Program-made: the position numbers and the translations under genes
Origin: a bacterium
GTDB lineage: Bacteria; Bacillota; SLNR01; JBMNPB01
Direction: 5' to 3'
DNA: 64,000 bases
Assembly (NCBI GenBank): GCA_050943375.1
Contig: JBMNPB010000001.1
Span: 102,278 to 166,277, forward strand
Notes under the pieces: model-generated
What the model saw: only the letters and a program-made list of their open reading frames with translations
The model's database searches: none
What the model was told of the DNA's origin: nothing
In this document: piece by piece, positions 17,836 through 39,257 of the stretch
Numbering within the stretch: the first letter of the stretch is position 1
Layout of the letters: each line of letters opens with the position of its first letter

Positions 17836-17850
17836 GGTCGGAGAAAGTCG

Positions 17851-18764: not shown

Positions 18765-18904
18765 AGCATTTTCCCCTGCAAGGGAAAGTTCGGCTTTTCA
18801 CAAGCATCTAACAATCGCTCCGTCTGGCGGATAATACCGGCGGCGGACAAGGCACGAGAACACCGGGTAGTACAGAAAAGCCCGGGCTAAAGGAGGGCAA
18901 TATT

Positions 18905-20698: not shown

Positions 20699-20752
20699 GG
20701 ATGCCGCCAAAGGGCAACGGAAGGCATTCAAAAAGAAGGAGTGTGTAAGGCA

Positions 20753-22480
20753 ATGGTATCGCTGAACATCGACGGGCGGAACGTCAGCGTTGAACCCGGG
20801 ACGACTGTGCTGCACGCGGCAGAAAAAGCCGGGATTCACATTCCGACCCTTTGTTATCTGAAAGACATCAACTGCATCGGCGCCTGCCGGGTTTGCGTAG
20901 TGGAAGTCGAAGGCGCTCGGGCGCTGCAGACCGCCTGCACTTATCCGGTGGCGGAAGGCATGGTCGTGAAGACCAACACCCCGGCAGTGCGGGCGGCGAG
21001 GAAAGCGGTAGTCGAATTAATCTTGTCCGACCACCCCCAAGACTGTCTGACTTGTTTCCGCAATCAGAACTGCGAGCTGCAGAAACTGGCCCAAGATCTC
21101 AATGTCCGGGAAGTCCGTTTCGCCGGCGAACAGACCCATCATCCCATCGATGCCTCCAGCCTGGCAATCGTCCGTGAACCGGACAAATGCATTCTTTGCC
21201 GGCGCTGCATCAGTGTCTGCCAGCAAGTGCAGGGCGTTCACGCCATCGGAATGGCGGAGCGGGGCTTCAAAAGCCTCGTCACCCCGGTTTTCGGGGAGGA
21301 CTTGGCTGACGTCGCCTGCGCCAATTGCGGCCAATGCGTTCTCGCCTGCCCGACCGGCGCTCTGCACGAGAAAGACGATACCGATAAAGTCTGGGCGGCC
21401 TTGACCGATCCGACGAAGCATGTCATCATTCAGACGGCTCCGGCCGTCCGGGTTGCAGTGGGCGAGGAGATGGGAATGGAGCCCGGGAGCCTCGTTACCG
21501 GCAAGATGGTGGCTGCGATCCGGCGGCTTGGCTCTGACAAAGTGTTTGACACCGACTTTACGGCCGATCTGACGATAATGGAAGAAGGGCACGAATTGCT
21601 GCACCGTTTGAACAACGGCGGCAAGCTGCCGATGATCACCTCCTGCAGCCCCGGCTGGATCAAGTATATTGAGCATTTTTACCCGAATCTTCTGGAGCAT
21701 CTCTCGACGTGCAAATCACCGCAGCAGATGTTCGGGGCACTGGCCAAGACGTATTACGCGGAGAAGGAAGGCATCGACCCGAAAGATATTGTCAGCGTTT
21801 CGGTAATGCCCTGCACGGCGAAGAAGTTCGAAGCCAAGCGGCCGGAAATGGATGACAGCGGCTATCAGGATGTGGATATCGCGATTACGACCCGGGAACT
21901 GGGCAGGATGTTCCGGGAAGCTGGGTTAGATTTTGCGAATCTGCCGGAGGAAGAATACGACGCTCCGCTGGGAATCAGCACCGGCGCCGGTGTTATCTTC
22001 GGCGCGACGGGCGGCGTCATGGAAGCGGCCCTGCGCACGGTGTACGAAGTCGTGACCGGCAAGACGCTGGAAAAAGTCGAGTTCACGGCGGTCCGGGGCC
22101 TGGAAGGCATCAAAGAAGCAACGGTTCAGGCTGGTGACATACCGGTGAAGGTGGCGGTAGCGCACGGCCTTGCCAATGCCCGGAAGATAATGGATCTGAT
22201 TCAAGACGGAAAAGCCGATTATCAATTCATCGAAATCATGTGCTGCCCGGGCGGGTGTATTGGTGGCGGCGGCCAGCCAATCCCGACCAATACCAAAATA
22301 CGCGGCAAGCGGGCGATGGCCATCTACACCGCGGATGAACTCTCAGTTATCCGCAAATCCCATGAAAACCCGGCGGTGCAGACATTGTACAAAGAATTCC
22401 TGGAGAAGCCCCTCGGGGAAAAATCCCATCATCTGCTGCACACTCATTACACGAAGCGGCCAAAATACCCGAAGGTTTAG
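20753..22480 (+). CDS. hydA: [FeFe]-hydrogenase catalytic subunit with NuoG-like N-terminal FeS domains and variant H-cluster motifs
   Basis: N-terminal 2Fe-2S and 4Fe-4S domains. H-cluster motifs: L1 ITSCSPGW (21632-21658), L2 MPCTAKKFE and L3 EIMCCPGGCIGGGGQP. ATG 20753 with RBS aaggag. Confidence 0.9.
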   Translation: MVSLNIDGRNVSVEPGTTVLHAAEKAGIHIPTLCYLKDINCIGACRVCVVEVEGARALQTACTYPVAEGMVVKTNTPAVRAARKAVVELILSDHPQDCLTCFRNQNCELQKLAQDLNVREVRFAGEQTHHPIDASSLAIVREPDKCILCRRCISVCQQVQGVHAIGMAERGFKSLVTPVFGEDLADVACANCGQCVLACPTGALHEKDDTDKVWAALTDPTKHVIIQTAPAVRVAVGEEMGMEPGSLVTGKMVAAIRRLGSDKVFDTDFTADLTIMEEGHELLHRLNNGGKLPMITSCSPGWIKYIEHFYPNLLEHLSTCKSPQQMFGALAKTYYAEKEGIDPKDIVSVSVMPCTAKKFEAKRPEMDDSGYQDVDIAITTRELGRMFREAGLDFANLPEEEYDAPLGISTGAGVIFGATGGVMEAALRTVYEVVTGKTLEKVEFTAVRGLEGIKEATVQAGDIPVKVAVAHGLANARKIMDLIQDGKADYQFIEIMCCPGGCIGGGGQPIPTNTKIRGKRAMAIYTADELSVIRKSHENPAVQTLYKEFLEKPLGEKSHHLLHTHYTKRPKYPKV

Positions 22481-22600
22481 GCAGGTGGAAAGGGGAAGCG
22501 GGGAGGAGAGAAAACATTGCCTTACCTGCTCTCTGGATGGGCGACAAAGAAAAGGCCGAGGCGGCCCAATCTCCCCGGCAACACTTAAAAGCAAAGAACG

Positions 22601-22644
22601 GGACTGTTCCCTTCCGGCAAGGAGGAGGACAGTCCTTTTATTTG
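22601..22644 (+). terminator. rho-independent terminator after hydA
   Basis: Long bulged stem ggactgttccctt/aaggaggaggacagtcc followed by ttttatttg. Confidence 0.6.
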
Positions 22645-22785
22645 ATGGATATGCTTAGCCAGGGCGGAAGTAATGAGATGATATTAACTGTCTCCAAAAA
22701 ACCGCCGCCCGCAATCTGACTGCTGCCGGGAGGTAAGCGGCGCAAGCGGACCGTCATCCCCGGGCAGCCCGTAGACATAGGCAAG

Positions 22786-23125
22786 CGCATCTCTGCGCCA
22801 GGCATAGCGGGAGGCGTTCAGGTACGAGCGGCTCGTTCTGGGCCTCAATTTCCTGCGGATAAGGCGTACCCTGAGATGCTCGCGATTCTCGCGCCGTTGG
22901 CCGACACGCTTATTCTGACTAAACCCGACAGCCCGCGGGCGGCAGAGCCGGAAGAACTGCAGGTGATCGCTGCCCGGTTCCAGAGCGATATCCGCCTGCA
23001 GGCAACAGTCGGGCAAGCGGTCGACGCGGCTTTGCGCATCGCCCGTCCGGCCGACCTTGTGTGCATTGCCGGGTCTTTGTATACAGTCGGCGCAAGTCGC
23101 GATAGATGGGGAAAATCGGCTTAAA
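22786..23125 (+). pseudogene. displaced partial copy of the folC 3' end (codons ~323-431), paired with 15383-15718
   Basis: The 82-aa ORF 22876-23124 is near-identical to the FolC C-terminus (MLAILAPLADTLILTKPD…SLYTVGASRDRW). It has no 5' part of the gene and no RBS. Confidence 0.8.
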
Positions 23126-23388
23126 ACAAAGATTACCCGATAACAACTGCTTTGACTTTTCGGGCTTTTTTAGCTAAGATGAAACTTAAAGAGAGCAGTC
23201 GGAGCAGCCAAATTACACCAAAGCGGAAATTAACTGTCTGTTGCAGGGATTCCGCAAAATTTGTCTAACACATAAATAGTTCAAAACATCACAAAATATT
23301 TTGTCGTCGACGGGCGGCAATATTATGATTGCAAAATTAGTATATATTTAATATCATTGCCGGGCGGGCGATTGGGGAGGTTAGAAAT

Positions 23389-23742
23389 TTGCCTCTTGTT
23401 CTTGAAGATGTTCGTCGTATTCTGGACGCGGAAATCATCAGCGGGGAAGAGAGGCTGGAGCGCCCAGTCGCTACGGTTTGCGCCTCCGATATGATGAGCG
23501 ATGTCCTAACGGTTGCCAAGGAACACGCAATCCTGCTTACGAGTCTCGCCAATCAGTATGTCATCCGCACGGCCGAAATAACCGATCTGGATGCGATTGT
23601 GTTTGTCTGCGGCAAGCGGCCGGATGCTGCCGCTACCGCTTTGGCCCGCCGAGTCGGCATGCCCCTTATGGCGACCGGCAAAACAATGTTTGAAAGCTGC
23701 GGCCTGTTGTATGGACATGGATTTAGGAGTGTTGCGCAGTAA
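23389..23742 (+). CDS. DRTGG-domain protein
   Basis: 117 aa. DRTGG-type fold signature (…DMMSDVLT…AILLTSLAN…DLDAIVFVCG…). TTG start after RBS ggggagg. Confidence 0.7.
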   Translation: MPLVLEDVRRILDAEIISGEERLERPVATVCASDMMSDVLTVAKEHAILLTSLANQYVIRTAEITDLDAIVFVCGKRPDAAATALARRVGMPLMATGKTMFESCGLLYGHGFRSVAQ

Positions 23743-23777
23743 AGCGGGGCGGTCTGGGAGCAGTGGGAGGAAAAAGA

Positions 23778-24245
23778 ATGGCTGGCGAGGAAAGTAGCGG
23801 GAGAAAGTCCGCCCCTGTGCTGACAATGTCGTTCCCGGTCAACTACCGGAACTTCGGAGCGGTCGGGGAAGCCGCCAGCCGAATTAAGACCGCGCTTCAA
23901 AAAATCGGCGTACCGCCTCCGATTATCCGACGGGTGGCAGTTGCCGCTTATGAAACGGCAATGAATATCGCAATTCACGCCGAGCGGGGCGACCTTATCT
24001 TAATCATCAACCCCGACTGCATCGAGATTTTAGCGGAAGACACCGGAGCCGGAATTGCTGATTTGGAGATGGCCATGCAGGAGGGGTATTCGACTGCCCC
24101 CGATTATATCCGGAAAATGGGTTTCGGTGCCGGAATGGGACTGCCCAACAGCAAGCGCTGTGCCGATATATTTGAACTCCGCTCTCAACTCGGCAAAGGT
24201 ACGACAGTCTACATCCGGATTAATGTTCCGGAACAAGCCGAATAA
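23778..24245 (+). CDS. GHKL ATPase (anti-sigma-factor/RsbW-SpoIIAB-like HATPase_c) protein
   Basis: HATPase_c N-, G1- and G2-boxes (…AYETAMNIAIHA…, DTGAGI, GFGAGMGL). ATG 23778 with RBS gggagg. Confidence 0.7.
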   Translation: MAGEESSGRKSAPVLTMSFPVNYRNFGAVGEAASRIKTALQKIGVPPPIIRRVAVAAYETAMNIAIHAERGDLILIINPDCIEILAEDTGAGIADLEMAMQEGYSTAPDYIRKMGFGAGMGLPNSKRCADIFELRSQLGKGTTVYIRINVPEQAE

Positions 24246-24313
24246 CGATGAAAAGAAACAGCCGGCTCGGTAACGCCCCGGGCCGGGGAGAGAAGGCAAG
24301 CGAGGTGAGAAGA

Positions 24314-24652
24314 ATGAAACTGGGAGACCTGGCCAGGGAGCTAGGTCTGCGGGTCTGCAGCGGACAGGAGTATCTGGAGCGAGAAGTGACCGGGGGTTAT
24401 TGCTCGGACATGCTCAGTGACGTCATGGCTCATGCGCAGGAAGGCAATATTTGGCTGACTATCCAGACTCATCAGAACATCGTCGCGGTGGCTTCTCTCC
24501 TCGGGCTGTGCGCCATTGTTATTACCGGCGGTGGTGAACCGGATGCGGACACGCTGGGAAAAGCCCAAAAAGAGGAAGTCGCTATTCTTACCACTGCGTG
24601 GTTTTCATTTGAAACAGGCGGCCGGATTTATCAACTGCTGGCCAAAGGATAG
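24314..24652 (+). CDS. DRTGG-domain protein (second copy)
   Basis: Paralogous to 23389-23742 (…GYCSDMLSDVMA…IWLTIQTHQN…AIVITGG…). ATG 24314 with RBS gaggtgag. Confidence 0.7.
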   Translation: MKLGDLARELGLRVCSGQEYLEREVTGGYCSDMLSDVMAHAQEGNIWLTIQTHQNIVAVASLLGLCAIVITGGGEPDADTLGKAQKEEVAILTTAWFSFETGGRIYQLLAKG

Positions 24653-25079
24653 CCGCGGCAAAATTACGGCCGGGCATGCTGAAAGCTTTGTGGCGCCGGA
24701 GCCGAAATGCCGGCGATACGATATCGCCCAGATTGGGGCGGAAAGAGTCAGCATAATTACTGACGACCGCAAAAGAGATCTGCTCGTCAGAGTTTTCGAC
24801 GTCCGCTGACCAGAAGTTTCAGACCGGGAGCGAACGCAGATTGGAACGGCTGAATCGCTACGGTAAAATCAGCCCCGCTGTACGGACCGAGCAGAATGAA
24901 AAGGTGGTGATAGCCAGTCATATGCGCGCCAGTATCCGAAAGCCGGAGTTTTTCACCCGGCACGAAAGCTTCTCCGGGATATTTGCGGAACTGGTTCTAT
25001 CAGATTTGAGTAATACCGCCGGGTCAGGCAGCGCGAGTTGCCGGTTTTCCTGAATAACCGCCTCTGTTTGGGTCTGCAA

Positions 25080-25114
25080 TTATGGCTGAAATATGAGAGC
25101 GGCTATGGTATAAT
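25080..25114 (+). promoter_or_regulatory. extended -10 promoter (TGgTATAAT) upstream of the fdh module
   Basis: tggtataat at 25106-25114. Weak -35. Confidence 0.4.
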
Positions 25115-25158
25115 GCCAGCGTGTGTGCAATTTTTCACAAATTTTGCTCAAATCCATA

Positions 25159-25677
25159 ATGAAGCTGAGGGAGGTGTTTTCATTGGCAAAACGCAAGACG
25201 GTTGTACCGTTTCAGGGCACAGCAGAGCAGGAAGCGAAGCTTCTGGAGATTATCGAGAAGCATAAAGGGGTGCAAGGCGCATTGATGCCGGTCCTGCAGC
25301 AGGCCCAGGATCTTTACGGCTATCTTCCCATCGAGGTCCAGAGAATCATTGCCGATAAGATGGGCTTGCCGCTGTCGGAGGTCTATGGCGTAGCTACGTT
25401 CTACGCACAGTTCACTCTCAATCCGAAAGGCAAGCACCAGATTGCAGTCTGTCTGGGGACTGCTTGCTATGTAAAGGGTTCGGGCGCGGTGATTGAACGT
25501 ATCGGCCAGAAGCTCGGCATCGAACCGGGCGGGATTACCCCGGACGGCTTGTTCTCGCTGGAGGCGACACGTTGCATCGGCGCTTGCGGACTGGCGCCGG
25601 CGATGACCATCGACGGCAAGGTTTACGGCCGCCTGACTCCGGCAGATGTGGATGAAATCATTGATTCATACAAGTAG
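25159..25677 (+). CDS. NuoE-like [2Fe-2S] subunit (paralog of hydC) of the formate dehydrogenase module
   Basis: Same NuoE signature (GTACYVKGS…RCIGACGLAP). Start ambiguous: ATG 25159, or TTG 25183 after gagggagg. Confidence 0.85.
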   Translation: MKLREVFSLAKRKTVVPFQGTAEQEAKLLEIIEKHKGVQGALMPVLQQAQDLYGYLPIEVQRIIADKMGLPLSEVYGVATFYAQFTLNPKGKHQIAVCLGTACYVKGSGAVIERIGQKLGIEPGGITPDGLFSLEATRCIGACGLAPAMTIDGKVYGRLTPADVDEIIDSYK

Positions 25678-25738
25678 GACGAGTCTTGGCTTTAACGACT
25701 CGCAGCAATTGTGAAAAATCATAAGGAGGTGTATTCCT

Positions 25739-27598
25739 ATGAAATCCCTGGCGGAACTTGCCGAATACCGGGAAAAAGTGAAGGCTGAATGCAATTTGCG
25801 TCAAGACAAATCGGACGACACGCGGGTGTTGGTCGGTTATGCGACATGCGGAATTGCAGCCGGCGCTACCCCGGTGCTGGACGCCTTTATCGAAGAAGTT
25901 GGCAAACGTCGACTCCCGAAAGTGATGGTGACCCAGACCGGCTGTATCGGTATCTGTAAGCTCGAACCAGTGGTGGAAATCCTCGAGCCCGGCAAAGAAA
26001 AAGTGACCTATGTGGAATTGACTCCGGATAAGGTGGAAAAAATCGTCACAGAGCATCTGCAAAACGGCCGGGTGGTCGATGAATACACGATCGGCGCCCA
26101 TGAGGAAGGCATCCAGAGTCTGAACGACAGCAAGTTTTACAAGAAGCAGCGACGCGTGGCGCTGCGGAACTCCGGAATCATCAATCCAGAGTCAATCGAC
26201 GAATACATCGCCCGTGACGGTTATGAAGCGCTCGGGCGCGTGCTGACCAGCATGCAACCGGAAGACGTCATCGCTACCATCAAGAATTCCGGCCTGCGTG
26301 GCCGTGGCGGTGCCGGCTTCCCGACCGGCCTGAAGTGGCAGTTCGCTGCGGCCAGCCCCGGACCGGTGAAATATGTCTGCTGCAACGCCGACGAAGGCGA
26401 CCCCGGCGCGTTCATGGACAGATCGGTGCTGGAAGGCGATCCCCACGCTTTGCTGGAGGCGATGACTATCGCCGGTTACGCCATAGGTGCGCATCAAGGA
26501 TATATCTATGTCCGGGCTGAGTATCCGACCGCAATCAAGCGCCTGCAGATCGCTATCGACCAAGCGCATAAATACGGTTTCCTGGGCAAAAACATCTTTA
26601 ACACCGGTTTCGATTTTGATCTGGAACTGAGGCTTGGCTCGGGTGCGTTCGTGTGCGGCGAGGAGACGGCGCTGATGATCTCCATCGAAGGTAAGCGCGG
26701 TGAGCCCAGACCCCGGCCGCCTTTCCCGGCAGTCAAAGGTCTGTTTGACAAGCCCACTATTCTGAACAACGTTGAGACTTACGCTAATATCCCGCGCATT
26801 ATTCTGAACGGCGCCGACTGGTTCTCCGCCGTCGGAACCGAAAAATCGAAAGGCACCAAAGTGTTCTGCCTGGTCGGCAAAATCAACAACACCGGCTTGG
26901 TGGAAATCCCGATGGGTACAACTTTGCGGGAGGTAATCGAGGAAATCGGCGGCGGCATCCAGGGCGGCAAGAAATTTAAGGCAGCGCAGACCGGCGGTCC
27001 CTCGGGCGGCTGCATCCCCGCATCCTTAATCGATACACCCATCGATTACGATAACCTCGTCGCCATCGGCGCGATGATGGGCTCGGGCGGTCTCATCGTT
27101 ATGGATGAGGACACATGCATGGTGGACATCGCTAAGTTCTTCCTGGAATTCACGGCCGAGGAGTCCTGCGGTAAGTGCACACCCTGCCGCATCGGAACGA
27201 AACGTCTGCTGGAAATGCTCGAGAAGATCACCCGTGGCGAAGGCACACTGGAACTGCTTGACGACATGGAAGAGCTGTGTAACGGCATCAAAAACAACAG
27301 CCTTTGCGCCCTCGGTCAGACAGCCCCGAACCCGGTTCTGTCAACGCTGCGCTATTTCCGGGATGAATATGTTGCCCATGTGGTCGACAAAAAATGCCCG
27401 GCTGGTGTTTGTAGGGATCTGCTGTCCTATGAGATTGACGCCGACAAGTGCATCGGCTGCACGGCTTGTGCCAGAGCCTGCCCGGCGGGTGCCATCTCCG
27501 GCAAGGTTAAGGAAAAGCATGTTATCGATAAGGCCAAGTGCATCAAGTGCGGCGCTTGCCTCGAAGCTTGTAAGTTCGGCGCCGTCGCCAAGAAATAA
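25739..27598 (+). CDS. NuoF-like NAD(H)-binding flavo-FeS subunit with fused N-terminal thioredoxin-like ferredoxin domain (paralog of hydB)
   Basis: GLRGRGGAGFPTGLKW, CGKCTPCR and C-terminal 2x[4Fe-4S] motifs. Collinear with 18905-20698. Confidence 0.9.
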   Translation: MKSLAELAEYREKVKAECNLRQDKSDDTRVLVGYATCGIAAGATPVLDAFIEEVGKRRLPKVMVTQTGCIGICKLEPVVEILEPGKEKVTYVELTPDKVEKIVTEHLQNGRVVDEYTIGAHEEGIQSLNDSKFYKKQRRVALRNSGIINPESIDEYIARDGYEALGRVLTSMQPEDVIATIKNSGLRGRGGAGFPTGLKWQFAAASPGPVKYVCCNADEGDPGAFMDRSVLEGDPHALLEAMTIAGYAIGAHQGYIYVRAEYPTAIKRLQIAIDQAHKYGFLGKNIFNTGFDFDLELRLGSGAFVCGEETALMISIEGKRGEPRPRPPFPAVKGLFDKPTILNNVETYANIPRIILNGADWFSAVGTEKSKGTKVFCLVGKINNTGLVEIPMGTTLREVIEEIGGGIQGGKKFKAAQTGGPSGGCIPASLIDTPIDYDNLVAIGAMMGSGGLIVMDEDTCMVDIAKFFLEFTAEESCGKCTPCRIGTKRLLEMLEKITRGEGTLELLDDMEELCNGIKNNSLCALGQTAPNPVLSTLRYFRDEYVAHVVDKKCPAGVCRDLLSYEIDADKCIGCTACARACPAGAISGKVKEKHVIDKAKCIKCGACLEACKFGAVAKK

Positions 27599-27785
27599 GC
27601 GATATTCTTGTCTGCATCCCGTTTAAGGCGGGATCCGGCTGCGGCCGTCCTGGCGCCGCCGGCAATGAAGCCAGCGGTTTTTGTCTCGTCAGAGAAAGAA
27701 GGCGGACGGCTGACCGGGGTGCAGGTGTCGCTTCATCATCACACAACAAGGATTCACTTCAGTGAATTCACGAGGAGGGATAACC

Positions 27786-30461
27786 TTGATAAACGTCACC
27801 ATCGACGGCATTCCGGTACAGGTGGAAGAAGGCGCAACCATTCTCGATGCCGCCGAAAAGGCCGGAATTCATATTCCCACCCTCTGTCATTTAAAGGGGG
27901 TCACCGGCGAAGGCTCCTGCCGGATGTGTTTGGTCGAGGTCGAAGGTGTGCGCGGTATGCCAGCCGCCTGCTCCTTCCCGGTGGCTGAGGGCAATGTGGT
28001 TCACACCGACACCCCCAAAGTCATCGAAAGCCGCAAGTTCGTCCTGAACCTGCTGCTCTCGAACCACAGAACGGATTGCTTCTCCTGTGCCAAAAACGGC
28101 GATTGCAAGCTGCAGGAGTACTGCTATGAATATGGAATCGAGATGTCGAAATACGAAGGCGAAAAAACCGAAGCTCCCATTGACGACAGCAACGAGTTCT
28201 TCACTTACGATCCTTCCCAATGCATCATGTGCCGTCGTTGCGTAAACACTTGCCACAAGCTGCACGGCGTCGGCGCCATCTCCGTTGTCGACCGGGGTTT
28301 TTCGGCGGCAATCCGCGCCCCCTTCGACGAACTGCTGAAAAGCAGCGACTGCGTCTCCTGCGGCAATTGCGTCTCCAACTGCCCGGTCGGCGCCCTGGCT
28401 CCCAAATCGAAGCATCGTTTCCGTACTTGGGAAGTCAAACACGTTCCGACCACCTGCAGTTACTGCGGCGTCGGCTGCCAATTGGATCTGCTGGTCAAGG
28501 GTAATAAAGTGGTCGGCGTACAACCGCTTGACGGTCCCGCCAACCACGGACTGCTTTGCGTCAAAGGCAAATTCGGGTATGAGTTTATCGACCATCCCGA
28601 CCGCCTGAAGAAGCCGCTGATTCGCAAGGACGGCGAATTGGTGGAAACGAGCTGGGATGAGGCGCTTGACTATGTGGCCGACAAACTGAAGGCGATCAAG
28701 GCCGAAAGTGGCCCCGACGCCATCGCCGGCTTGACCAGCGCCCGCTGCACCAACGAAGAGAACTATGCTTTTATGAAGATGATGCGCGCAGCCGTCGGCA
28801 CTAACAATGTCGATCACTGCGCCCGCCTCTGACACTCCCCAACGGTGGCCGGTCTGGCCGCCACACTGGGGTCCGGTGCTATGACTAACTCTATCGCGGA
28901 AGTAGCTGACGCTGATCTGGTCTTTGTGACCGGTTCCAATACCACTGAAACGCATCCGGTTATCGGTTCGCTGATCCGGCAGGCCAAACGTAAGGGCGGC
29001 AAGCTCATTGTGGCTGAACCGAGGAAGATTCCGCTCTGCCGCGAGGCTGATTTGTTCCTGCAGATCAAACCGGGTACCAACGTCGCGCTGCTCAACGGGA
29101 TGATGAACGTCATCATTGCCGAAGGACTGCAGGACCAGGCATACATTGATGCCCGCACCGAAGGCTACGAGGAGCTGAAAGCGGTTGTCGCCGACTACAC
29201 TCCCGATAAAGTGGCCGAAATCTGCGGTATCGAAGCGGAAGACCTGAAGACCGCGGCCCGGATGTATGCCGAGGCCGGTGTAGCCGGTATCTTTTATGCC
29301 ATGGGTGTGACCCAGCATACAACCGGTACGGAAGGGGTCATGAGTACTGCCAACCTGGCGCTGCTGTGCGGCAATATCGGCAAATACGCCGGCGGTGTTA
29401 ACCCGCTGCGCGGACAGAACAACGTCCAGGGCGCCTGCGATATGGGCGGGCTGCCCGGTGATTTCTCCGGCTATCAGAAAGTAGCGAACCCGGCCGTTAT
29501 CGAGAAATTCGAGAAGGCCTGGGGTGTGAAGCTGTCCAATAAGCCCGGCTACACCGTCATGGAAATGATGGACGCTATCGACAAAGGCGAGGTTCGCGCT
29601 ATGTATATCATGGGTGAGAATCCCATGATTTCCGACCCCGATATCCAGCACGTCGAACACGCGCTTAAAAAATGCGAGCTCCTCGTGGTTCAGGATATCT
29701 TCCTGACCGAAACGGCTGCTCTCGCCGACGTTGTTCTCCCGGCCGCTGCTTTCGCTGAGAAGGATGGTACCTTTACTAACACCGAGCGGCGCGTGCAGCT
29801 GGTCAACAAGGCGGTGGAAGCACCCGGCGAGGCGAGAACCGACTTGGATATCATTAACGATATGACAGCGCGCCTCGGATACAAAAACAACTTCGCGACT
29901 CCGGCCGAAGTGCTGGCGGAAATCGCCGCGGTGACGCCTTCCTACGGAGGGATGTCGGTGGAGCGGCTCAAGGACGGAGGGCTGCAGTGGCCCTGCCCCG
30001 ACAAGGACCATCCCGGCACTCCTATCCTGCATGCTAAGAAGTTCTCCCGCGGCGAGCGCGCGATCTTCAAGCCGGCGAAGTACCGTTCCGGAGCGGAACA
30101 GCCCGATGCTGAATATCCTTATATCTTCACGACGGGCCGGATCCTTTATCAGTATCACACCCGCACTATGTCGGGCAAGGTCGACGGTCTTAACGCCATC
30201 GCGGGCAACTCCTATGTGGAGATTAACCCGACCGATGCCGCGAAATACGGCATTAAGCAGGGCGACGCCGTCACGGTCAGCTCCCGGCGGGGCAGCGTGA
30301 CCGTCCCGGCTCAGGTCACGGAGGCGGTCGCCGAAGGGATTATCTTCATGCCCTTCCATTTCGCCGACGGTCCGGCCAATCTGCTGACTAACGCTGTATA
30401 TGATCCTATCGCCAAGATCCCGGAATACAAGGTCTGCGCAGTCAAGATCCGAAAAGGATAA
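27786..30461 (+). CDS. fdhA: selenocysteine-containing formate dehydrogenase alpha subunit (NuoG-like N-terminus plus molybdopterin domain); in-frame UGA at 28830-28832
   Basis: The ORF-track ORFs 27762-28832 and 28845-30461 are in the same frame. The junction reads …VDHCARL-U-HSPTVAGLAA…, the canonical Sec context of Fdh-type enzymes. A SECIS-like hairpin follows. TTG 27786 after RBS gaggaggg. Confidence 0.85.
28837..28871 (+). promoter_or_regulatory. bacterial SECIS-like hairpin 5 nt downstream of the in-frame UGA
   Basis: Lower stem cccc/gggg, internal loop, upper stem gtggc(c)gg/ccgccac with a bulged C and apical loop UCUGG. Confidence 0.55.
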
Positions 30462-30522
30462 AACGATGCTTCCGGTTTGCGCCGGCTCATACCGGCGCAA
30501 ACCGGCCCCGGGAGGGAGTCCA

Positions 30523-31137
30523 ATGAAAATGTTCGGAACAGCGGCCATTCTGGCCGGCGGCAAATCATCGCGAATGGGTTTTGACAAGCAGTTGCTCACG
30601 CTTGACGGGAAACGGTTTCATGTTCAAATCATCGAACAGCTACGGCAATTGTTTGGCGATGTTCTGCTGGTGACGAACAAGCCGGAGTTTTACCGGGAAT
30701 TGCCAGTACGGGTCTGCTCCGACGTTTTTCCCGGAAGGGGTCCGCTCGGCGGCATTCACGCGGCGCTGTTCAATGCCCAAAGCCGTTATGTCTATGTGCT
30801 GGCCTGTGATATGCCGTGTGTTTGCCCCGGTTATATCCATTACCAGATGAAACTGCTTCGGCGCAACCCCTCCGGCGCCTGTGTCACCCGGAAGGAGGAC
30901 TGGCTGGAGCCTTTCAATGCCTTTTACAGTACCGACACTCTCCCGATTTTGTCCCGCCATCTGCAGGAAGGGAAAAGCTCGCTTTATTTCTTTCTGAAGG
31001 AAATCAACGCTGCTATTCTGGCGGAAGAGACAGCCCGCCGCTTTGATCCGGAGATGAATATGTTCCTCAATCTGAACACTCCGGCGGAGTATGAGGCCTT
31101 TATCAAAAGGAGAGGGCGATATGAAGCTTGCGGTTGA
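30523..31137 (+). CDS. mobA: molybdenum cofactor guanylyltransferase
   Basis: N-terminal nucleotide-binding motif AILAGGKSSRMG. ~205 aa. ATG 30523 with RBS gggaggga. Confidence 0.8.
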   Translation: MKMFGTAAILAGGKSSRMGFDKQLLTLDGKRFHVQIIEQLRQLFGDVLLVTNKPEFYRELPVRVCSDVFPGRGPLGGIHAALFNAQSRYVYVLACDMPCVCPGYIHYQMKLLRRNPSGACVTRKEDWLEPFNAFYSTDTLPILSRHLQEGKSSLYFFLKEINAAILAEETARRFDPEMNMFLNLNTPAEYEAFIKRRGRYEACG

Positions 31138-31900
31138 TGCGCCGATTTTGCGCTATGAAGATGGGCAAACCAGGTTGCTCGACGATCCCGTCGTTGTCGA
31201 ATACCGACTGGCTGTCTGGCTGAACGGAGCGCCTTGGGTCAATCTCCTGTGCTCACCGCAGGATCTGGATGTACTGGTGCTGGGTTATCTGTACGGCGAA
31301 GGCATTATCAAGACGCCGGACGATATCCTGTCGATTGCCCTCGCGCCGGAAGACGGCATCGCCCGGGTAACGGTCCGGGGTGTGCCGGAGATGCCGGCCC
31401 AGGCCGGTCCGATCACGGCCCCCCGCGGCGCCGGGCGGCAGCACGCAATGGGCGGCGCCGGCCCGGGCCGCCCGGCTGAGCCTCTTTCGGGCAGTCTAAA
31501 CTTTGCCGGTGGTGCGCTGCTTAGGAATCTGCGGCAGTTCTACGCCGACTCGGGCTTGCACCGATTGACGGCAGGGGTGCACCGTGCCGCTCTCTGTGAC
31601 GACAACGGCATCCTTCTGACCGCCATTGATATCAGCCGGCATAATGCTTTCGACAAGGTGCTCGGCATGGCCTTGCGGCAAAACATCCCGCTGGAATGCC
31701 ACTATCTGATCACCAGCGGCCGTGTTCCCAGCGACATGGTCAACAAAGCGATTACCGCCCGTTTGCCTATGCTGGTATCCCGGGCGGCGCCTACAGATTG
31801 GGCAATCAGACTCGCCCGGGAAGCGAACATGACGCTGCTGGGATTCTCCCGTGAGAATCGCTTCAACATTTATACCGGAGCACACCGGGTTAATATGTAG
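31121..31900 (+). CDS. fdhD: FdhD-family formate dehydrogenase accessory sulfurtransferase homolog (cysteine loop not evident)
   Basis: FdhD-like N- and C-terminal blocks (…LTAGVHRAAL…DISRHNAFDKVLG…VSRAAPTDWAIRLAREANMTLLGFSR…). ATG 31121 with RBS aggaga. Overlaps the mobA end. Confidence 0.8.
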   Translation: MKLAVDAPILRYEDGQTRLLDDPVVVEYRLAVWLNGAPWVNLLCSPQDLDVLVLGYLYGEGIIKTPDDILSIALAPEDGIARVTVRGVPEMPAQAGPITAPRGAGRQHAMGGAGPGRPAEPLSGSLNFAGGALLRNLRQFYADSGLHRLTAGVHRAALCDDNGILLTAIDISRHNAFDKVLGMALRQNIPLECHYLITSGRVPSDMVNKAITARLPMLVSRAAPTDWAIRLAREANMTLLGFSRENRFNIYTGAHRVNM

Positions 31901-32517
31901 CATCTCATTGTAATATCTTATACGGGGAGAATAGAGTATCTTTTCAGCAAAATTGCCCCAAAAAATGACCGGAATTGGAAAGAAAAGCCTCAACTCCAGT
32001 AAAGAGTTGTTCGCTATGTCCGGCGGCAGCCTGATTGTCATCGCGGTGCCGGAAATGAATACTTACTGGCTGATGTGATGCACATCCGGAAATTATCTGT
32101 CTTGGGAACTCCGCCGGGGTGCTTCTAAGTGCCCGGCTGGCAGTGACTTCCGGACATCTGAAACTTCGCGGCAATACTCCGGCGCTGACCACCGGCAAGA
32201 CCGCTGCGGCTGAATGCTCAACCGTATCCGGATAACTGTTTTCATCAGTATCTTAACTAACTTACTCGTTTTCCGTATGGATAAGCTTTGCAGCTAAGGA
32301 CATCGCCGGCAAGATGGCCAATTACTATCTGCCGCTGTTCGTACTCTGCGGTTTCGAGTACAGCAGTCAGCAGATATTCCAAACCGGCGGCAGCGGAACC
32401 CGGTCATATTCTCGGCAAATGAGCGGAAGGACTGGACAAAGGCATCCGAAGCAAAGCGAGAATAGCGGGAAAACCAAAATCATCTTCTTGACAAAAAGGA
32501 AGTGAGGGGAGGACATT

Positions 32518-33501
32518 ATGTTTATTCCCGTAATTGGATTTTTAACGTTGTTTGCGATGACATGTACATTGGTTGGTTTAGGCCTGACGGAAACATTTAA
32601 TCAACCCGGTTTCGGCAGTACTGCCGTTATTGTTGCGGTGCTGGCGGCGCTGCTGTATGGAGCCAGGCTGGAATGGGCCCTGAGTCTGACCAAAGAGAAA
32701 ACCCAGAATGCCAAGATCGGCGGAAACGATTTGGCGAATTTTGTCGCCGTGGTTATTGGAGCGATTATCGCCTATTTTATCAATGTTACTTTGGGACTGG
32801 GCGGGGTGGTGGCCGTCGGATTGGTGGGTGTAACCACCAACCTGGTTGCCCCGAAACACGATGTCCCGGTCTACTGTGGCGGTATTATGGGCATGGCCAG
32901 CGGGGCATTGCTGCCGACCTATGCGTATGTACTGCTGGCGGCAATAATTGCCGGGATTGTGTTTGTGATTAGTAAATTCACCTTTAACGGTTTTGGGGGC
33001 AAGCTGGGCACTACCGCTATTACCGGCTGTGTGCTTACGGCCTTGATTACCGGCCAGCCGTTCGGCAGCTCTCCCGTCCCGGCCGGGGATGTGATTCTGC
33101 TCTATGTTATCTATTGTGCTATGGGAGCGGTTCTGAGCTTTGGTGTGAAGGAGTATTTTAAGCACAACGCAGTAATGAGTTCAGCGCTGATCGCGCTTCT
33201 TGCCGGGCTGTTGCTGCCGGCTCTCAATCCGCAAATGGGCGGAGCGCTCGCAGTTGTGGCATCCGTCGGCGCTTTTGCCGGCATGAGCGCGCCGGCCCGG
33301 ATTCCCAACCTGGCGTATATGTTCGTGGCCGGAATAATCGGCGGTGTGATTTACTCTTACACTTCCCCATATTTGGGCGGCGCCGGCGGAAAATTGGGAA
33401 CTACCGCTTTTAGTTCGGTTGTAGCCCTGAATGCAATGATTAGCCTGGCCAAGAATTTCAGCGGAAAGAGCCAGGTGCAGCAGGCAAAGACGCCGCACTG
33501 A
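32518..33501 (+). CDS. polytopic membrane protein with internal tandem duplication (unknown family; possible YedE/YeeE-like transporter)
   Basis: 327 aa, ~10 TM. Two homologous halves, each ending in G(F/A)GGKLGTTA(I/F). RBS gaggggagg. Confidence 0.7.
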   Translation: MFIPVIGFLTLFAMTCTLVGLGLTETFNQPGFGSTAVIVAVLAALLYGARLEWALSLTKEKTQNAKIGGNDLANFVAVVIGAIIAYFINVTLGLGGVVAVGLVGVTTNLVAPKHDVPVYCGGIMGMASGALLPTYAYVLLAAIIAGIVFVISKFTFNGFGGKLGTTAITGCVLTALITGQPFGSSPVPAGDVILLYVIYCAMGAVLSFGVKEYFKHNAVMSSALIALLAGLLLPALNPQMGGALAVVASVGAFAGMSAPARIPNLAYMFVAGIIGGVIYSYTSPYLGGAGGKLGTTAFSSVVALNAMISLAKNFSGKSQVQQAKTPH

Positions 33502-33651
33502 GCCGGAACGGCGATAAACAACCGCGCCGGATGCCGCAAGAATGGCTTGCATTATCGGGCGCAAGGCTGGGAAAGTACTTGTGACTCTGGGGAAGAAAGG
33601 CGGCCGGCAAGCGGTTAACAGAATAAACCCGGGCGTAATTGACGCTGGGCA

Positions 33652-33696
33652 GCCAAGCGGGCAGGTGAAATCACCTGCCCGCTTGGCGTTTAGTAT
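33652..33696 (+). terminator. very stable hairpin terminator upstream of the AT-rich rnf promoter region
   Basis: 17-bp perfect stem gccaagcgggcaggtga/tcacctgcccgcttggc with a 2-nt loop, followed by guuuagu. Confidence 0.6.
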
Positions 33697-33908
33697 GAAA
33701 AATCCAACAATTAGGCATTGCGAAATATATTGGTAGTAACAATAGATATATCAAAGAATATAAATAGCTATCATAATCTAAGCTTTTAATAATTAAAATA
33801 GGTAAGAACAGTATATACCTATTTCCCTATTGTCACCAAAGGCGAAATGTAGTAAGATAAAAGACGAAATTTTATTTTGTGGTTGAGAATATGAGGTGAA
33901 ACTGCCAG

Positions 33909-35135
33909 ATGAGCAAACGGGTTTTCTTGGAAGGAGCCGACCTGCGGCAATTGCGGGGGACGACCGCCGAAAAAACGATTGTCGCTGTCCCCGCTCCGGC
34001 GAGCGTCGTGCTGTTTGTCGGCGATCTGGAAATGCTTGTCAAAGCCGGAGACACGGTGCTGGCCGGTCAGATGCTGGCGCACAGTAAAGCGCTTTTATCT
34101 GTCCCGGTCCACGCCAGTATCGCCGGCAAGATCAAGCAGGTGGAAGACTTGCCCAATCCGAACGGCGGTCTGGCCCGGGCGGTAGTGATTGAGAATGACG
34201 GCTCGGGAGCGGTGCACGAGACGGTGCAGAAGCCGGGCAATTGGGAGTCCATGCCGGCCGATGCTTTGCGGGACGCAATTTTCAACGCCGGTATTTATCT
34301 TCCTCCCTTCGGCGGCGACCGGCCAGGCCAGGTATTGGTAAACTGCGCGGTAAGTGAGCCTTCGATTACCGCCGATTATCGCCTGATGCTGGAGCGGGCG
34401 GCCGATATTGTCAGCGGCCTTGCGGCCGCAATTAAGGCGGTCGGCGCCAAACAAGGGATAATTGTCGTGGACAAGAGAGAACTCGAAGCGGTGCAGGCGA
34501 TGCGGAAAGCTTTGCCGGCGGACGGCACCATCGGTCTTGTCGCCCCGGACAATCGTTATCCGCCGCTGGCGGAAAAGCTGCTGTTCAGGGATGTGACCGG
34601 GGGTAAGATGCCCAGCGTCATCATGACTGCGGGCGAAGCAGTGGCGATCAGTGAATTTCTGCAGACTGGCAAACCGTATATCGAAAAGACGGTGACCGTT
34701 ACCGGATCCGGCGTGCGGGAACCTGGCAATTATCAGATGCCGTTGGGGATGCGCTGCCGCGACGCGCTTGCGGCCGCGGCGAAGATCGAAGGAGAAATCG
34801 GCCAGATTATTCTGGGCGGTCCTCTGGCGGGAACACTGGCGGCTTCGGCGGATGTACCGCTCACGAAAAAAATGGACGGTATTCTGGTCTTGGCCGCCGC
34901 CGATGTGCGGCGGGATAAGCCGGGGAAATGCGTCCGCTGCGGGGCTTGTATTCAGGTCTGTCCCATCGGGCTGATGCCGCTGTATCTGGGGGATGTGGCC
35001 GAGGCCGGCCGGGCCGGTGAAGCTGCCGCTTACCACGTTGACGAATGTGTTGAGTGCGGCGCCTGTGCTTACGAATGTCCGGCGAAGCGGCCGCTGCTGC
35101 AGTATATCAGGCTGGCCAAAGGCGAGGGGAAATAA
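33909..35135 (+). CDS. rnfC: Rnf complex subunit C (divergent nucleotide-binding loop)
   Basis: RnfC_N, SLBB-like region (…LVNCAVSEPSITADYRLMLE…) and two C-terminal [4Fe-4S] motifs (CVRCGACIQVCP, CVECGACAYECP). First gene of rnfCDGEAB. Confidence 0.8.
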   Translation: MSKRVFLEGADLRQLRGTTAEKTIVAVPAPASVVLFVGDLEMLVKAGDTVLAGQMLAHSKALLSVPVHASIAGKIKQVEDLPNPNGGLARAVVIENDGSGAVHETVQKPGNWESMPADALRDAIFNAGIYLPPFGGDRPGQVLVNCAVSEPSITADYRLMLERAADIVSGLAAAIKAVGAKQGIIVVDKRELEAVQAMRKALPADGTIGLVAPDNRYPPLAEKLLFRDVTGGKMPSVIMTAGEAVAISEFLQTGKPYIEKTVTVTGSGVREPGNYQMPLGMRCRDALAAAAKIEGEIGQIILGGPLAGTLAASADVPLTKKMDGILVLAAADVRRDKPGKCVRCGACIQVCPIGLMPLYLGDVAEAGRAGEAAAYHVDECVECGACAYECPAKRPLLQYIRLAKGEGK

Positions 35136-35170
35136 CGGTGTGAGCCGTCGGACAAAAGGGAGGAAAAGAA

Positions 35171-36190
35171 ATGCGGGAATATCATTTCATTGGTTCCGCC
35201 CCGCCGTATCTGAAATGTAATGATACAGTCCGGGGCATAATGCGCCACGCGCTCATCGCCTTTGCGCCGGCGGCGCTGGCGGCGGTATATTTCTTCGGCT
35301 TTGCCGCCATTACGGTTATGATGACGAGTGTTTTGACGGCAGTGGCGACCGAGGCGATTATCCAGAAACTACGGGGGATGCCAATTACGATTAACGACGG
35401 CAGTGCTGTGATAACCGGATTGCTCTTGTCTTTCACATTGCCGCCCGGTTTCCCACTGCTGCTGACGGCGCTGGGTGCGGTGTTTGCTATTGCGATTGTG
35501 AAGCATACTTTCGGGGGTCTCGGTCACAATGTCTTCAATCCGGCCCTGGCGGCCTGGGTTTTTCTGGCGGTTTCCTGGCCGGAAGAAGCGGCTGCTTTCA
35601 TCTGGCCGGAAAAACTGGCCTGGGCGGCCAAGGCGGCCGGCGGCTTTGACGCCGCGACTACCGCGACTCCGCGGGCTTTGGAGAAAGCTGGCGCTATTGC
35701 AGCCAATTTTAACTTGTTTAGCGGCAGCGGACTTATTTCTAATCTTTCCATGTACGCCGATCTGTTTGTGGGCCGTGTCGCCGGTTCTCTCGGCGAGACA
35801 TCCGCTCTGGCTATTCTGATCGGGGGAGCGTATCTTCTCCTGACCTGCCGTAAATATGTGGGCTGGAGGGTTACGGCGAGTTTTATCGGCACGGTAGCCG
35901 TCCTCGCTTGGCTGCTGGGCGGCCCGGGGGAACTCGCGACCGGCGACCCGATTTATGCGGTTCTTTCCGGCGGCGTGCTGCTGGGCGCCTTCTTCTATGC
36001 GACGGATATTGTCACTTCGCCGGTGACGCACCGGGGACAATTGATTGCAGGTATCGGCTGCGGCATCCTGACGTTTGTGATCCGGGCTTACGGGAAATGG
36101 CCGGAAGGCGTCGTTTTCGCCATTCTGATCATGAATGCCCTGACCCCGCTGATTGATCGTCTGGTGCTGCCAAAACCTTTAGGGAGGTGA
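35171..36190 (+). CDS. rnfD: Rnf complex subunit D (NqrB-like membrane flavoprotein)
   Basis: Conserved N-terminus …SAPPYLKCNDTVRGIM…, polytopic, FMN-attachment region …TTATPRAL…. RBS aaagggagg. Confidence 0.9.
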   Translation: MREYHFIGSAPPYLKCNDTVRGIMRHALIAFAPAALAAVYFFGFAAITVMMTSVLTAVATEAIIQKLRGMPITINDGSAVITGLLLSFTLPPGFPLLLTALGAVFAIAIVKHTFGGLGHNVFNPALAAWVFLAVSWPEEAAAFIWPEKLAWAAKAAGGFDAATTATPRALEKAGAIAANFNLFSGSGLISNLSMYADLFVGRVAGSLGETSALAILIGGAYLLLTCRKYVGWRVTASFIGTVAVLAWLLGGPGELATGDPIYAVLSGGVLLGAFFYATDIVTSPVTHRGQLIAGIGCGILTFVIRAYGKWPEGVVFAILIMNALTPLIDRLVLPKPLGR

Positions 36191-36197
36191 GGGTGCA

Positions 36198-37028: not shown

Positions 37029-37044
37029 GCGTAAAGGAGGTAAA

Positions 37045-37659: not shown

Positions 37660-37671
37660 GGGGGAGTATTG

Positions 37672-38247: not shown

Positions 38248-38262
38248 AGGGGGTGAAAACTG

Positions 38263-39081: not shown

Positions 39082-39092
39082 GGTTAACGGAA

Positions 39093-39122
39093 AGGCCGGA
39101 TAATAATCTGGCCTTTTTCTTT
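39093..39122 (+). terminator. rho-independent terminator after rnfB
   Basis: 8-bp stem aggccgga/tctggcct with loop taataa, followed by ttttcttt. Confidence 0.65.
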
Positions 39123-39257
39123 AGCAAAAAAAGGATAAAGATTATTTCCGGCTGATAACAGAGGATTTTCCGCATTTATGTTATAATTATGAGAGTATGG
39201 ACAAGCAGAGCCAAAAACAGGCGTGACAGGTATCCTGATCTCCAAAGGAGAAGAGAT

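Follow-up and report, generated by a model that had tools for sequence, protein, structure and literature searches.

Two open reading frames follow one another in the window (the whole 64-kb stretch of DNA that was analysed) with a UGA codon between them, and the question raised by this locus is whether they represent two genes, the remains of a broken one or a single formate dehydrogenase (FDH) gene in which UGA stands for selenocysteine (Sec). The source organism is an uncultured, deep-branching member of the Bacillota, present in biogas-reactor metagenomes. A sequence-only reading had favoured the last of these answers. The overall best explanation, to which a probability of about 0.9 can be attached, is an fdhA gene with Sec at the UGA that encodes the catalytic subunit of a Type 1 Fdh-Bfu complex. 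The features of the locus are collected in Table 1.

Table 1. Features in and around fdhA, numbered from the first nucleotide of the window.
Feature	Position	Strand	Basis or remarks
Promoter-like site ahead of the NuoE-like gene: CTGAAA-17-TATAAT, TG-extended	25086-25114	+	Consensus match 10/12
NuoE/HydC-like [2Fe-2S] subunit (BfuC), maximal ORF	25123-25677	+	Pfam 2Fe-2S_thioredx 6e-53; NCBIfam HoxE/NuoE/FDH-gamma
NuoF/HydB-like FMN/NAD(H) subunit (BfuB)	25739-27598	+	Pfam Complex1_51K, SLBB, NADH_4Fe-4S, Fer4 x2
Structured intergenic leader before fdhA, 187 nt	27599-27785	+	MFE; ends with AGGAGGG at 27773-27779
ORF 1	27762-28832	+	ORF listing; GTG start, 356 aa
fdhA, FDH catalytic subunit, 891 codons	27786-30461	+	TTG start, TAA stop
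In-frame UGA (codon 349), predicted Mo/W-ligating selenocysteine	28830-28832	+	Alignment to FdhH 1aa6 Sec140
Predicted SECIS core, 7-bp apical stem GGUGGCC/GGCCGCC, loop GGUCU (28851-28855)	28844-28862	+	Rfam, codon contrast, covariation; begins 12 nt past the UGA
ORF 2	28845-30461	+	ORF listing; GTG start, 538 aa
Perfect 14-bp hairpin, downstream of the fdhA stop and ahead of the mobA-like RBS	30472-30505	+	Without T-run
MobA-like NTP transferase (molybdopterin guanine dinucleotide synthesis)	30523-31137	+	Pfam NTP_transf_3 7e-35; start ATG 30523, L081 gene call
FdhD, sulfurtransferase for FDH maturation	31121-31900	+	TIGR00129 171 bits vs cut-off 141; Pfam FdhD-NarQ; L081 gene call

The starts of the two ORFs are both divisible by three, so they share one frame, and translation of 27786-30461 yields 892 codons with codon 349 as the single internal stop, in the context NNVDHCARL-stop-HSPTVAGLAA. 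Both the common frame and this junction had been recognised in the sequence-only reading, and a single TGA separates the two ORFs. The true start of fdhA is the TTG at 27786, which lies behind the Shine-Dalgarno sequence AGGAGGG, is also picked by two public gene callers and coincides with residue 1 of the protein, where the alignment of homologues begins. As had been claimed, 27786-30461 is a single gene that was mis-split: three matches span the UGA unbroken. The formate dehydrogenase alpha profile TIGR01591 is matched with 902.8 bits (cut-off 666.25) over aa 222-888, corresponding to profile positions 1-672, in one stretch; the Pfam Molybdopterin domain runs over aa 273-693 with codon 349 inside it; and PDB entry 6tg9_A aligns to aa 2-888, again in one stretch, at 1e-238. 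Full-length homologues number more than 100, with 60-73% identity and 100% query coverage. An antisense ORF of 902 aa (27891-30599), codon-aligned with fdhA, was dismissed as a shadow ORF, which is open because fdhA contains one TTA, CTA or TCA codon where 5.2 would be expected.

FdhA combines a NuoG-like N-terminus carrying five Fe-S sites with a Mo/W-bis-MGD domain. The earlier recognition of 2Fe-2S and 4Fe-4S modules in the N-terminus agrees with the Pfam domains found there (Fer2_4, NADH-G_4Fe-4S_3, Fer4 and Molybdop_Fe4S4), and the cysteine motifs lie at aa 34-48/62, 94-107, 146-156, 189-199 and 224-231/258. The proximal [4Fe-4S] cluster and both MGD-binding domains are represented by Molybdop_Fe4S4, Molybdopterin and Molydop_binding. 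The best full-length structural match is FdsGBA(D) from Rhodobacter capsulatus (6tg9), in which NuoG-like and FDH parts are fused as they are in FdhA and which likewise works with NuoE- and NuoF-like partners; its metal ligand is Cys, not Sec, as it is in related chains. The catalytic domain is also that of FdhH (FdhF, 1aa6/1fdo) from E. coli, with 605 bits over aa 218-888. When the protein is compared with homologues, the UGA codon falls on Sec140 of FdhH (1aa6) and on the Cys of 7qv7_S, 7bkb_D and 7vw6_A, while His350 matches the adjoining His141 and Arg542 matches Arg333. FdhH, unlike FdhA, lacks the NuoG-like extension at the N-terminus and belongs to the membrane-bound formate hydrogenlyase, whereas FdhA is accompanied by NuoE/F-like subunits.

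Across 80 related loci, the column of codon 349 holds TGA in 38 gene copies and TGC or TGT in 43, with no domain boundary at that position in any homologue, a finding that would have spoken against the proposed selenoprotein. The nearest FdhA relatives, which are 64-73% identical (L001-L019 and L045), are all of the Cys type, with TGC or TGT, and the sister clade, in gut Oscillospiraceae, has Cys throughout and a largely eroded SECIS. The close relative L087 keeps the same TGA. The Sec form could be a Cys-to-Sec re-acquisition within an otherwise all-Cys clade rather than an ancestral Sec that was kept. Some Sec-type homologues (L020, L029 and others) gave matches of about 3.6 kb, suggestive of an 'insertion' of about 930 nt; this was rejected, as the ORFs flanking their Sec codon are normal in size (about 350 and 543 aa), and the long match probably arose because tblastn added on the NuoG-like domain of an adjacent gene. 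A metagenome scan with the FdhA N-terminus gave a best match of 57% identity, with no closer relatives and no further leader sequences.

With respect to the signal for Sec insertion, the Rfam model RF01989 (SECIS_3) is matched from position 1 to 59 at 28827-28885, with 54.8 bits and E = 6.3e-10 over the whole window, and this is the only SECIS match in the window. The score lies below the Rfam gathering score of 63, as it does in all of the eight other Sec-type homologues compared with the model (42-58 bits, 0/8 reaching 63). Cys-type homologues, used as a control on the score, reach 21.5-40.3 bits, because of coding conservation. Several pairs of the model are non-canonical in the fdhA sequence, and the helix that these data support pairs 18-24 with 30-36 around a 5-nt loop, a register other than that of the model. 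In the E. coli fdhF mRNA, too, a stem-loop stands shortly after the UGA, and its apical loop opens with GGUC, the sequence contacted by SelB; the fdhA element presents the 5-nt loop GGUCU on a 7-bp GC-rich stem.

The folding energy of the hairpin is unremarkable (-24.9 kcal/mol, z = -1.8, 11/200 shuffles folding as well) and too weak to serve as evidence, so the contrast between Sec and Cys codons and covariation were used instead. At least six contiguous pairs of the 7-bp stem are present in 38/39 Sec genes vs 6/43 Cys genes (Fisher p = 7e-16), and the loop GGTCT in 38/39 vs 13/43 (p = 5e-11); these p-values overstate independence, because the sequences in both groups are phylogenetically related. 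Over the stem, the two types of gene encode the same amino acids (V-A-G-L-A), and Sec-type genes keep the stem through synonymous-codon choice and compensatory changes. Covariation at 28844-28862 gives the same picture, with 94% of cells paired (0/500 shuffles equal this, and slid controls reach 10-58%) and compensatory pairs at 21:33 (UA/GC/CG) and 24:30 (AU/CG/UA). The comparison with SECIS models that had been suggested as a check thus agrees with the codon and covariation evidence, and from these sequence comparisons 28844-28862 is taken to be a SECIS element. The bulged hairpin originally described at 28837-28871 needs to be qualified: a SECIS is present and the hairpin does pair as described, with CCCC at 28837-28840 against GGGG at 28868-28871 around the inner stem, but its lower, bulged part is not a conserved element, that helix being lineage-specific and paired in 49% of cells across the family. 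The full MFE structure was rejected as the SECIS for the same reason, as its lower helices are 49-71% paired and only the apical helix is conserved.

Other explanations of the UGA have to be measured against these data. If fdhA were a Cys-type gene struck by a TGC-to-TGA nonsense mutation, it would yield a 348-aa NuoG-like fragment only and its remainder would be decaying; this would fit the TGC or TGT of all its closest relatives, from which TGA is one base away, and the fact that selA, selB, selD and tRNA-Sec were not found within the 64-kb window. Such a pseudogene is nevertheless very improbable, since 542 codons remain open after the UGA and the C-terminal 541 aa are more conserved than the N-terminal 348 aa (74% vs 67% identity to homologues). 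In addition, the same TGA is found in L087 although about 30% of its codons differ, and the codon differences behind it (33 synonymous, 7 non-synonymous) reveal purifying selection, with one change in the 59-nt SECIS region. The stem-loop is also intact in fdhA, with 7/7 pairs and the GGUCU loop, and the compensatory changes that it shows are characteristic of Sec-type genes alone. Alternatively, the UGA might be a true stop, with the C-terminal 526-538 aa translated separately from GTG 28845 or ATG 28881 and the two polypeptides assembling afterwards. Gene callers yield exactly such pieces (P0241, P0242, 348 aa; 1527-2573 and 2622-3179 in L087), but a split at this point would interrupt the Molybdopterin domain and take out the metal-ligand residue, no Shine-Dalgarno sequence precedes 28845 or 28881, and a split at a sense codon is seen at this site in none of the homologues (80 loci, 120 proteins). 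As this arrangement would also leave the SECIS signature without explanation, it is extremely unlikely.

Readthrough that does not involve Sec, either by reassignment of UGA (to Trp or Gly) or by insertion of a near-cognate amino acid or Cys, would produce a non-selenium enzyme. This is compatible with the negative search of the window for Sec machinery and with the many homologues in which Cys at position 349 gives active enzymes. Against it, TGA is the ordinary stop of 10/44 genes in the window, among them hydC, rnfD, rodA and rsfS, where it falls at the ends of family profiles, so the code is the standard one; an in-frame TGA occurs in fdhA alone, and a stem-loop of the SelB type is under selection. 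Readthrough of this kind is accordingly given little credence, and codon 349 almost certainly specifies selenocysteine rather than a stop, its insertion being what the element would direct.

The two genes upstream encode the predicted partner subunits of FdhA. The BfuC-like gene has a probable start at TTG 25183, behind GAGGGAGG, and its product is 54% identical to the HydC paralogue encoded at 17344-17835, while the BfuB-like subunit is 61% identical to the HydB paralogue encoded at 18905-20698. The latter subunit begins with a thioredoxin-like [2Fe-2S] domain (an NCBIfam 2Fe-2S ferredoxin matches aa 37-117) and ends with a 2x[4Fe-4S] ferredoxin domain (Fer4 x2 at aa 564-615). Its best PDB match is HydB (7q4v_B, 876 bits, aa 39-618), whereas the match to the non-bifurcating FdsB (6tg9_B) reaches 389 bits and ends at aa 544, with 75 aa extending beyond it. 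Beta subunits of bifurcating enzymes are said to be set apart from non-bifurcating ones by an A and an M close to the NADH site, an F close to the FMN and a GGPSG motif (PMC7311640), a pattern that is fitted by GAFM at 223, GAFVCGEE at 302 and GGPSG at 419, matched by motif to the T. maritima numbering. Non-bifurcating homologues are without the B2-B5 clusters (PMC9304861). These features agree with the NAD(H)/ferredoxin-linked FDH, working with the upstream NuoE and NuoF paralogues, that the sequence-only reading had envisaged.

Among known systems, Type 1 Fdh-Bfu enzymes of the BfuABC family, exemplified by Carboxydothermus hydrogenoformans (Schut et al. 2022, PMC9304861), have the same three genes, with a BfuA that carries a pterin FDH domain in place of the H-cluster domain, and the same extra Fe-S domains and GAFM, GAFVCGEE and GGPSG motifs in BfuB; the present complex, a Sec-type one, is assigned to them from sequence features. 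As of 2022, biochemical characterisation of a Type 1 Fdh-Bfu had yet to be reported (PMC9304861). FdsGBA from R. capsulatus does not bifurcate (PMC9304861), and FdsB is devoid of the C-terminal 2x[4Fe-4S] domain that the BfuB-like subunit possesses; a beta subunit of the FdsGBA type would consist of the NuoF core only, whereas two Fer4 motifs follow it here, and no fdsD-like gene was recognised at this locus. The bifurcating W- and Se-containing FdhF2-HylABC from Gottschalkia (Clostridium) acidurici (Wang et al. 2013, via PMC9304861 and PMC7311640) is, as these secondary accounts present it, likewise a selenocysteine FDH with HydB/HydC-type subunits, in which formate reduces NAD+ and ferredoxin; according to the same accounts, its pterin subunit and the NuoG-like HylA are separate (Type 3), whereas both are fused in the single FdhA described here. 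The complex is thus predicted to be a three-subunit Type 1 Fdh-Bfu, linked to NAD and ferredoxin and electron-bifurcating.

Following the known bacterial pathway, translation would begin at TTG 27786, the UGA would not be read as a stop, SelB-GTP-Sec-tRNA(Sec) would bind the stem-loop and insert selenocysteine, and translation would run on to the TAA ending at 30461. In the mature enzyme, Sec349 would ligate the bis-MGD-bound metal, which may be Mo or W, with His350 and Arg542 completing the active site. Electrons would pass through the five Fe-S clusters of the NuoG-like N-terminus to the HydC-like and HydB-like subunits, where electron bifurcation may link the interconversion of formate and CO2 to NAD+/NADH and ferredoxin. 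The NAD and ferredoxin pools would be common to Fdh-Bfu, the HydABC hydrogenase and the Rnf complex, both of which adjoin the fdhA locus, and the products of the downstream mobA-like gene and fdhD would mature the FDH cofactor.

Additional elements may contribute to the expression of these genes. The promoter-like site upstream of the NuoE-like gene is the best match within 22400-34000, and its similarity to the consensus makes it the likely operon promoter. The leader before fdhA is strongly structured (MFE -79.7 kcal/mol, z = -3.8, 1/200 shuffles as good) and may be a so far undescribed RNA that senses a cofactor or a metal, in which case translation of fdhA would be controlled separately inside the operon. 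A Moco riboswitch, present at the equivalent place in L087, was considered for this leader and discarded, the Rfam search of 27599-27785 having returned no match of any kind. That either holds, a sensing RNA in the leader or a Sec form re-acquired from Cys, is unlikely when the two are taken jointly, and neither is needed to explain fdhA. The hairpin behind fdhA (-34.3 kcal/mol, z = -3.8, 0/200 shuffles as good) may stabilise the RNA or mark a site of processing.

Automated annotation was expected to truncate or split this gene, and both IMG and Logan gene calls indeed do so at the UGA: on the source contig, the sole JGI/IMG call is a 348-aa 'molybdopterin-dependent oxidoreductase YjgC', and in L087 the calls are the two pieces mentioned above. 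As only the 348-aa product is annotated, a metabolic reconstruction would miss both the complete FDH and the organism's predicted need for selenium. Sec-containing FDH is the commonest bacterial selenoprotein, and the enzyme described here is a predicted selenoprotein FDH of ordinary, well-known biology that leaves current understanding unchanged. With its all-Cys sister clade, the locus provides a clean natural contrast between Sec and Cys, and an NAD/ferredoxin-linked FDH beside HydABC and Rnf is the toolkit expected for the interconversion of formate and H2 in syntrophy or acetogenesis.

The two ORFs that lie around codon 349 of fdhA start at coordinates divisible by 3 and therefore share a frame (see the table for the coordinates of all features). 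Translated as a whole, the gene has 892 codons and just one stop inside it, the TGA at codon 349, within the peptide TNNVDHCARL-stop-HSPTVAGLAA, in agreement with the sequence-only reading, which had described two same-frame ORFs divided by one TGA. The functional start is TTG 27786, which lies 6 nt downstream of AGGAGGG, coincides with the residue at which homologues begin to align and is also chosen by public gene callers. The GTG that opens the downstream ORF was rejected as a real start, being merely the first start codon past the TGA, and no Shine-Dalgarno sequence was found upstream of it or of ATG 28881. A long antisense ORF, codon-aligned to fdhA, was likewise dismissed as a shadow ORF; fdhA contains one TTA, CTA or TCA codon, compared with 5.2 expected from 14 other genes.

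Features in and around the formate dehydrogenase (FDH) operon
Feature	Position	Strand	Remarks
T-box leader	10690-10907		5' of valS; 126.8 bits
valS	10981-13620		
[FeFe]-hydrogenase cluster	17344-22480		HydC, HATPase protein, small [2Fe-2S] protein, HydB, HydA
Three small genes	23389-24652		DRTGG domain, HATPase_c, DRTGG domain
Promoter-like site	25086-25114		
NuoE/HydC-like protein	25123-25677		[2Fe-2S]
NuoF/HydB-like protein	25739-27598		619 aa; N-terminal thioredoxin-like [2Fe-2S] region, C-terminal 2x[4Fe-4S] domain
Intergenic gap	27599-27785		187 nt; -79.7 kcal/mol, z = -3.8
Upstream ORF	27762-28832	+	356 aa
fdhA	27786-30461	+	
Shadow ORF	27891-30599	-	902 aa
SECIS_3 match	28827-28885		
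In-frame TGA	28830-28832	+	
Lower helix	28837-28840/28868-28871		CCCC/GGGG
Predicted SECIS core	28844-28862		loop GGUCU, 28851-28855
Downstream ORF	28845-30461	+	538 aa
Hairpin	30472-30505		14 bp; -34.3 kcal/mol, z = -3.8
Membrane protein	32518-33501		327 aa
Terminator-like hairpin	33652-33687		16 bp
rnfCDGEAB, apbE	33909-40316		
L21 leader	55886-55957		36.1 bits (gathering score 36)

Read through the TGA, the product is a single FDH catalytic subunit. Its Molybdopterin domain runs unbroken across codon 349 (aa 273-693), flanked by the further Pfam domains Molybdop_Fe4S4 and Molydop_binding and by Fer2_4, NADH-G_4Fe-4S_3 and Fer4, the latter three bearing out the proposed NuoG-like N-terminus with 2Fe-2S and 4Fe-4S clusters. 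The protein scores 902.8 bits on NCBIfam TIGR01591 (formate dehydrogenase subunit alpha; cut-off 666), and its top solved-structure matches are FDH alpha subunits, including Rhodobacter capsulatus FdsA (6tg9_A, 1e-238, aa 2-888), T. kivui HDCR FdhF, Methylobacterium FoDH1 and E. coli FdhH. In the residue-level alignment with FdhH, the UGA codon, the following His and Arg542 correspond to Sec140, His141 and Arg333, and the UGA column is occupied by Cys in 7qv7_S, 7bkb_D and 7vw6_A, as had been anticipated. The metal of FdhA would be Mo or W.

A scan of species-representative genomes recovered 80 loci with 54-73% identity to FdhA, in which the UGA column holds TGA in 38 gene copies (Sec-type) and TGC or TGT in 43 (Cys-type), with no domain boundary or other codon at that position among the 80 loci. 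In several Sec-type loci (among them L020, L029, L031 and L038) tblastn matches span about 3.6 kb instead of 2.67 kb; an insertion was rejected, as the ORFs around the Sec codon are of normal length, and the extra span therefore probably belongs to an adjacent gene whose product carries a NuoG-like domain.

Regarding the SECIS element proposed next to the UGA, the Rfam model SECIS_3 (RF01989) matches end to end with 54.8 bits. Its E-value is 1.4e-12 when 141 nt are searched and 6.3e-10 for the full window, which has no other SECIS match; the bits fall short of the gathering score (63), so the element is absent at the curated threshold. Since the model overlaps conserved coding sequence, homologues were used as controls: Cys-type genes score 21.5-40.3 bits and Sec-type genes 42-58. 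Both classes encode the peptide T-V-A-G-L-A, which makes the comparison of their stem-loops informative, as any difference reflects synonymous-codon choice. At least six contiguous pairs of the apical stem (positions 18-24 with 30-36 of the 59-nt match) are found in 38/39 Sec-type versus 6/43 Cys-type genes (Fisher p = 7e-16), and the loop GGTCT in 38/39 versus 13/43 (p = 5e-11), both p-values being upper bounds on significance given that the sequences are related by descent. Among the 39 Sec-type sequences, 94% of cells are paired (0/500 shuffles as good; slid registers 10-58%), with compensatory types at 21:33 (UA, GC, CG) and 24:30 (AU, CG, UA); the window stem, GGUGGCC/GGCCGCC, retains 7/7 pairs despite three double changes relative to the majority AGUUGCA/UGCAACU. 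Of the bulged hairpin originally drawn, the lower helix did not hold, as it is not conserved across the family, and the hairpin's folding energy by itself is unremarkable (z = -1.8). With these two features set aside, the predicted functional core is the apical stem-loop, beginning 12 nt past the UGA.

Conservation points to translation past the UGA: mean identity to 40 homologues is 74% over the 541 residues after it and 67% over the 348 before, without gaps. A closer relative in Logan assemblies (L087, L088, L089), about 92% identical in its N-terminal part, shares the TGA, and codon differences are 94 synonymous and 30 non-synonymous upstream, and 33 and 7 downstream; the 59-nt SECIS segment carries one substitution, at an unpaired position. 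TGA is the ordinary stop of 10/44 window genes, so the code is standard and recoding site-specific. As selA, selB, selD and tRNA-Sec are not found within the 64-kb window, the case for Sec is indirect but convergent, with column identity, a selected SECIS and translation of the region past the UGA all pointing to it.

The nearest relatives of FdhA, gut and rumen MAGs labelled Oscillospiraceae, Faecousia or Acutalibacteraceae (64-73% identity), are all Cys-type. In a rough NJ tree the window FdhA is sister to this clade, and Sec- and Cys-type lineages interleave further out; the simplest reading of this unrefined tree would be that Sec is ancestral and was repeatedly replaced by Cys. A few Cys-type loci keep 6-7 contiguous apical-stem pairs (L030 7060, L077 7060, L018 7045, L026 1079, L032 7057, L074 7060) and another, L025, reaches 40 bits on SECIS_3; all these loci may carry 'fossil' SECIS elements that outlived the change from Sec to Cys. 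The host is a deep-branching member of the Bacillota, uncultured and, given its LonB, spore-forming; genes identical to those of the window occur in a biogas-fermenter metagenome and other assemblies. Its ValS is 100% identical to the MAG protein MGI5838138.1, encoded on a 178,031-bp contig; the next relatives of ValS show 86%, 76% and 70% identity, followed by named Negativicutes (Acetonema, Sporolituus) at about 66%. FdhA is instead closest to gut/rumen Oscillospiraceae (73%), a mismatch that could stem from horizontal FDH gene transfer or from sparse sampling.

Directly upstream of fdhA lie the expected NuoE and NuoF paralogues, which share 54% and 61% identity with HydC and HydB, respectively, of the electron-bifurcating-type [FeFe] hydrogenase encoded in the same window. 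The beta subunit best matches bifurcating HydB (7q4v_B, 876 bits, aa 39-618), other leading matches being NiFe-HydB 7t2r_B and the Stn and Nfn B subunits, whereas non-bifurcating FdsB (6tg9_B) reaches 389 bits and its alignment ends at aa 544. It also contains GAFM, GAFVCGEE and GGPSG, a pattern tied to bifurcating beta subunits (Losey et al. 2020, PMC7311640). These features favour the predicted NAD(H)/ferredoxin-linked type and suggest bifurcating activity. The architecture is exactly that of Type 1 Fdh-Bfu, uncharacterised at the time of Schut et al. 2022 (PMC9304861).

Downstream of fdhA come a MobA-like gene, fdhD and a Gly/Ala-rich polytopic membrane protein gene, conserved in Logan contig L081, which is followed by a strong terminator-like hairpin; a complete rnf cluster with apbE lies directly 3' of the operon. 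Pfam and NCBIfam searches gave no match for the membrane protein, and to propose that it transports formate or another substrate would be guesswork. The three small genes between the hydrogenase and FDH clusters may be regulators. The perfect GC-rich hairpin between the fdhA stop and the mobA-like RBS (0/200 shuffles as good) lacks a T-run and is therefore not a canonical terminator. The gap preceding fdhA folds very stably and matched no family in an Rfam search; the longer equivalent gap of L087 (1301-1409), alignable with it over the last ~100 nt only, contains a riboswitch of the Molybdenum/Tungsten cofactor family (RF01055, 36.8 bits, gathering score 36).

As foreseen, automated callers truncate or split the gene: the exact 348-aa N-terminal fragment is found among Logan gene calls (P0241) and in JGI/IMG (P0242, 178,031-bp contig), where it is named 'predicted molibdopterin-dependent oxidoreductase YjgC', and the gene calls for L087 divide fdhA into 1527-2573 and 2622-3179. 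The finding is real and was correctly interpreted, as a Sec-type member of a known FDH class using a known recoding mechanism; unsurprising to a specialist, it offers an annotation fix for public data and a contrast between Sec- and Cys-type genes.
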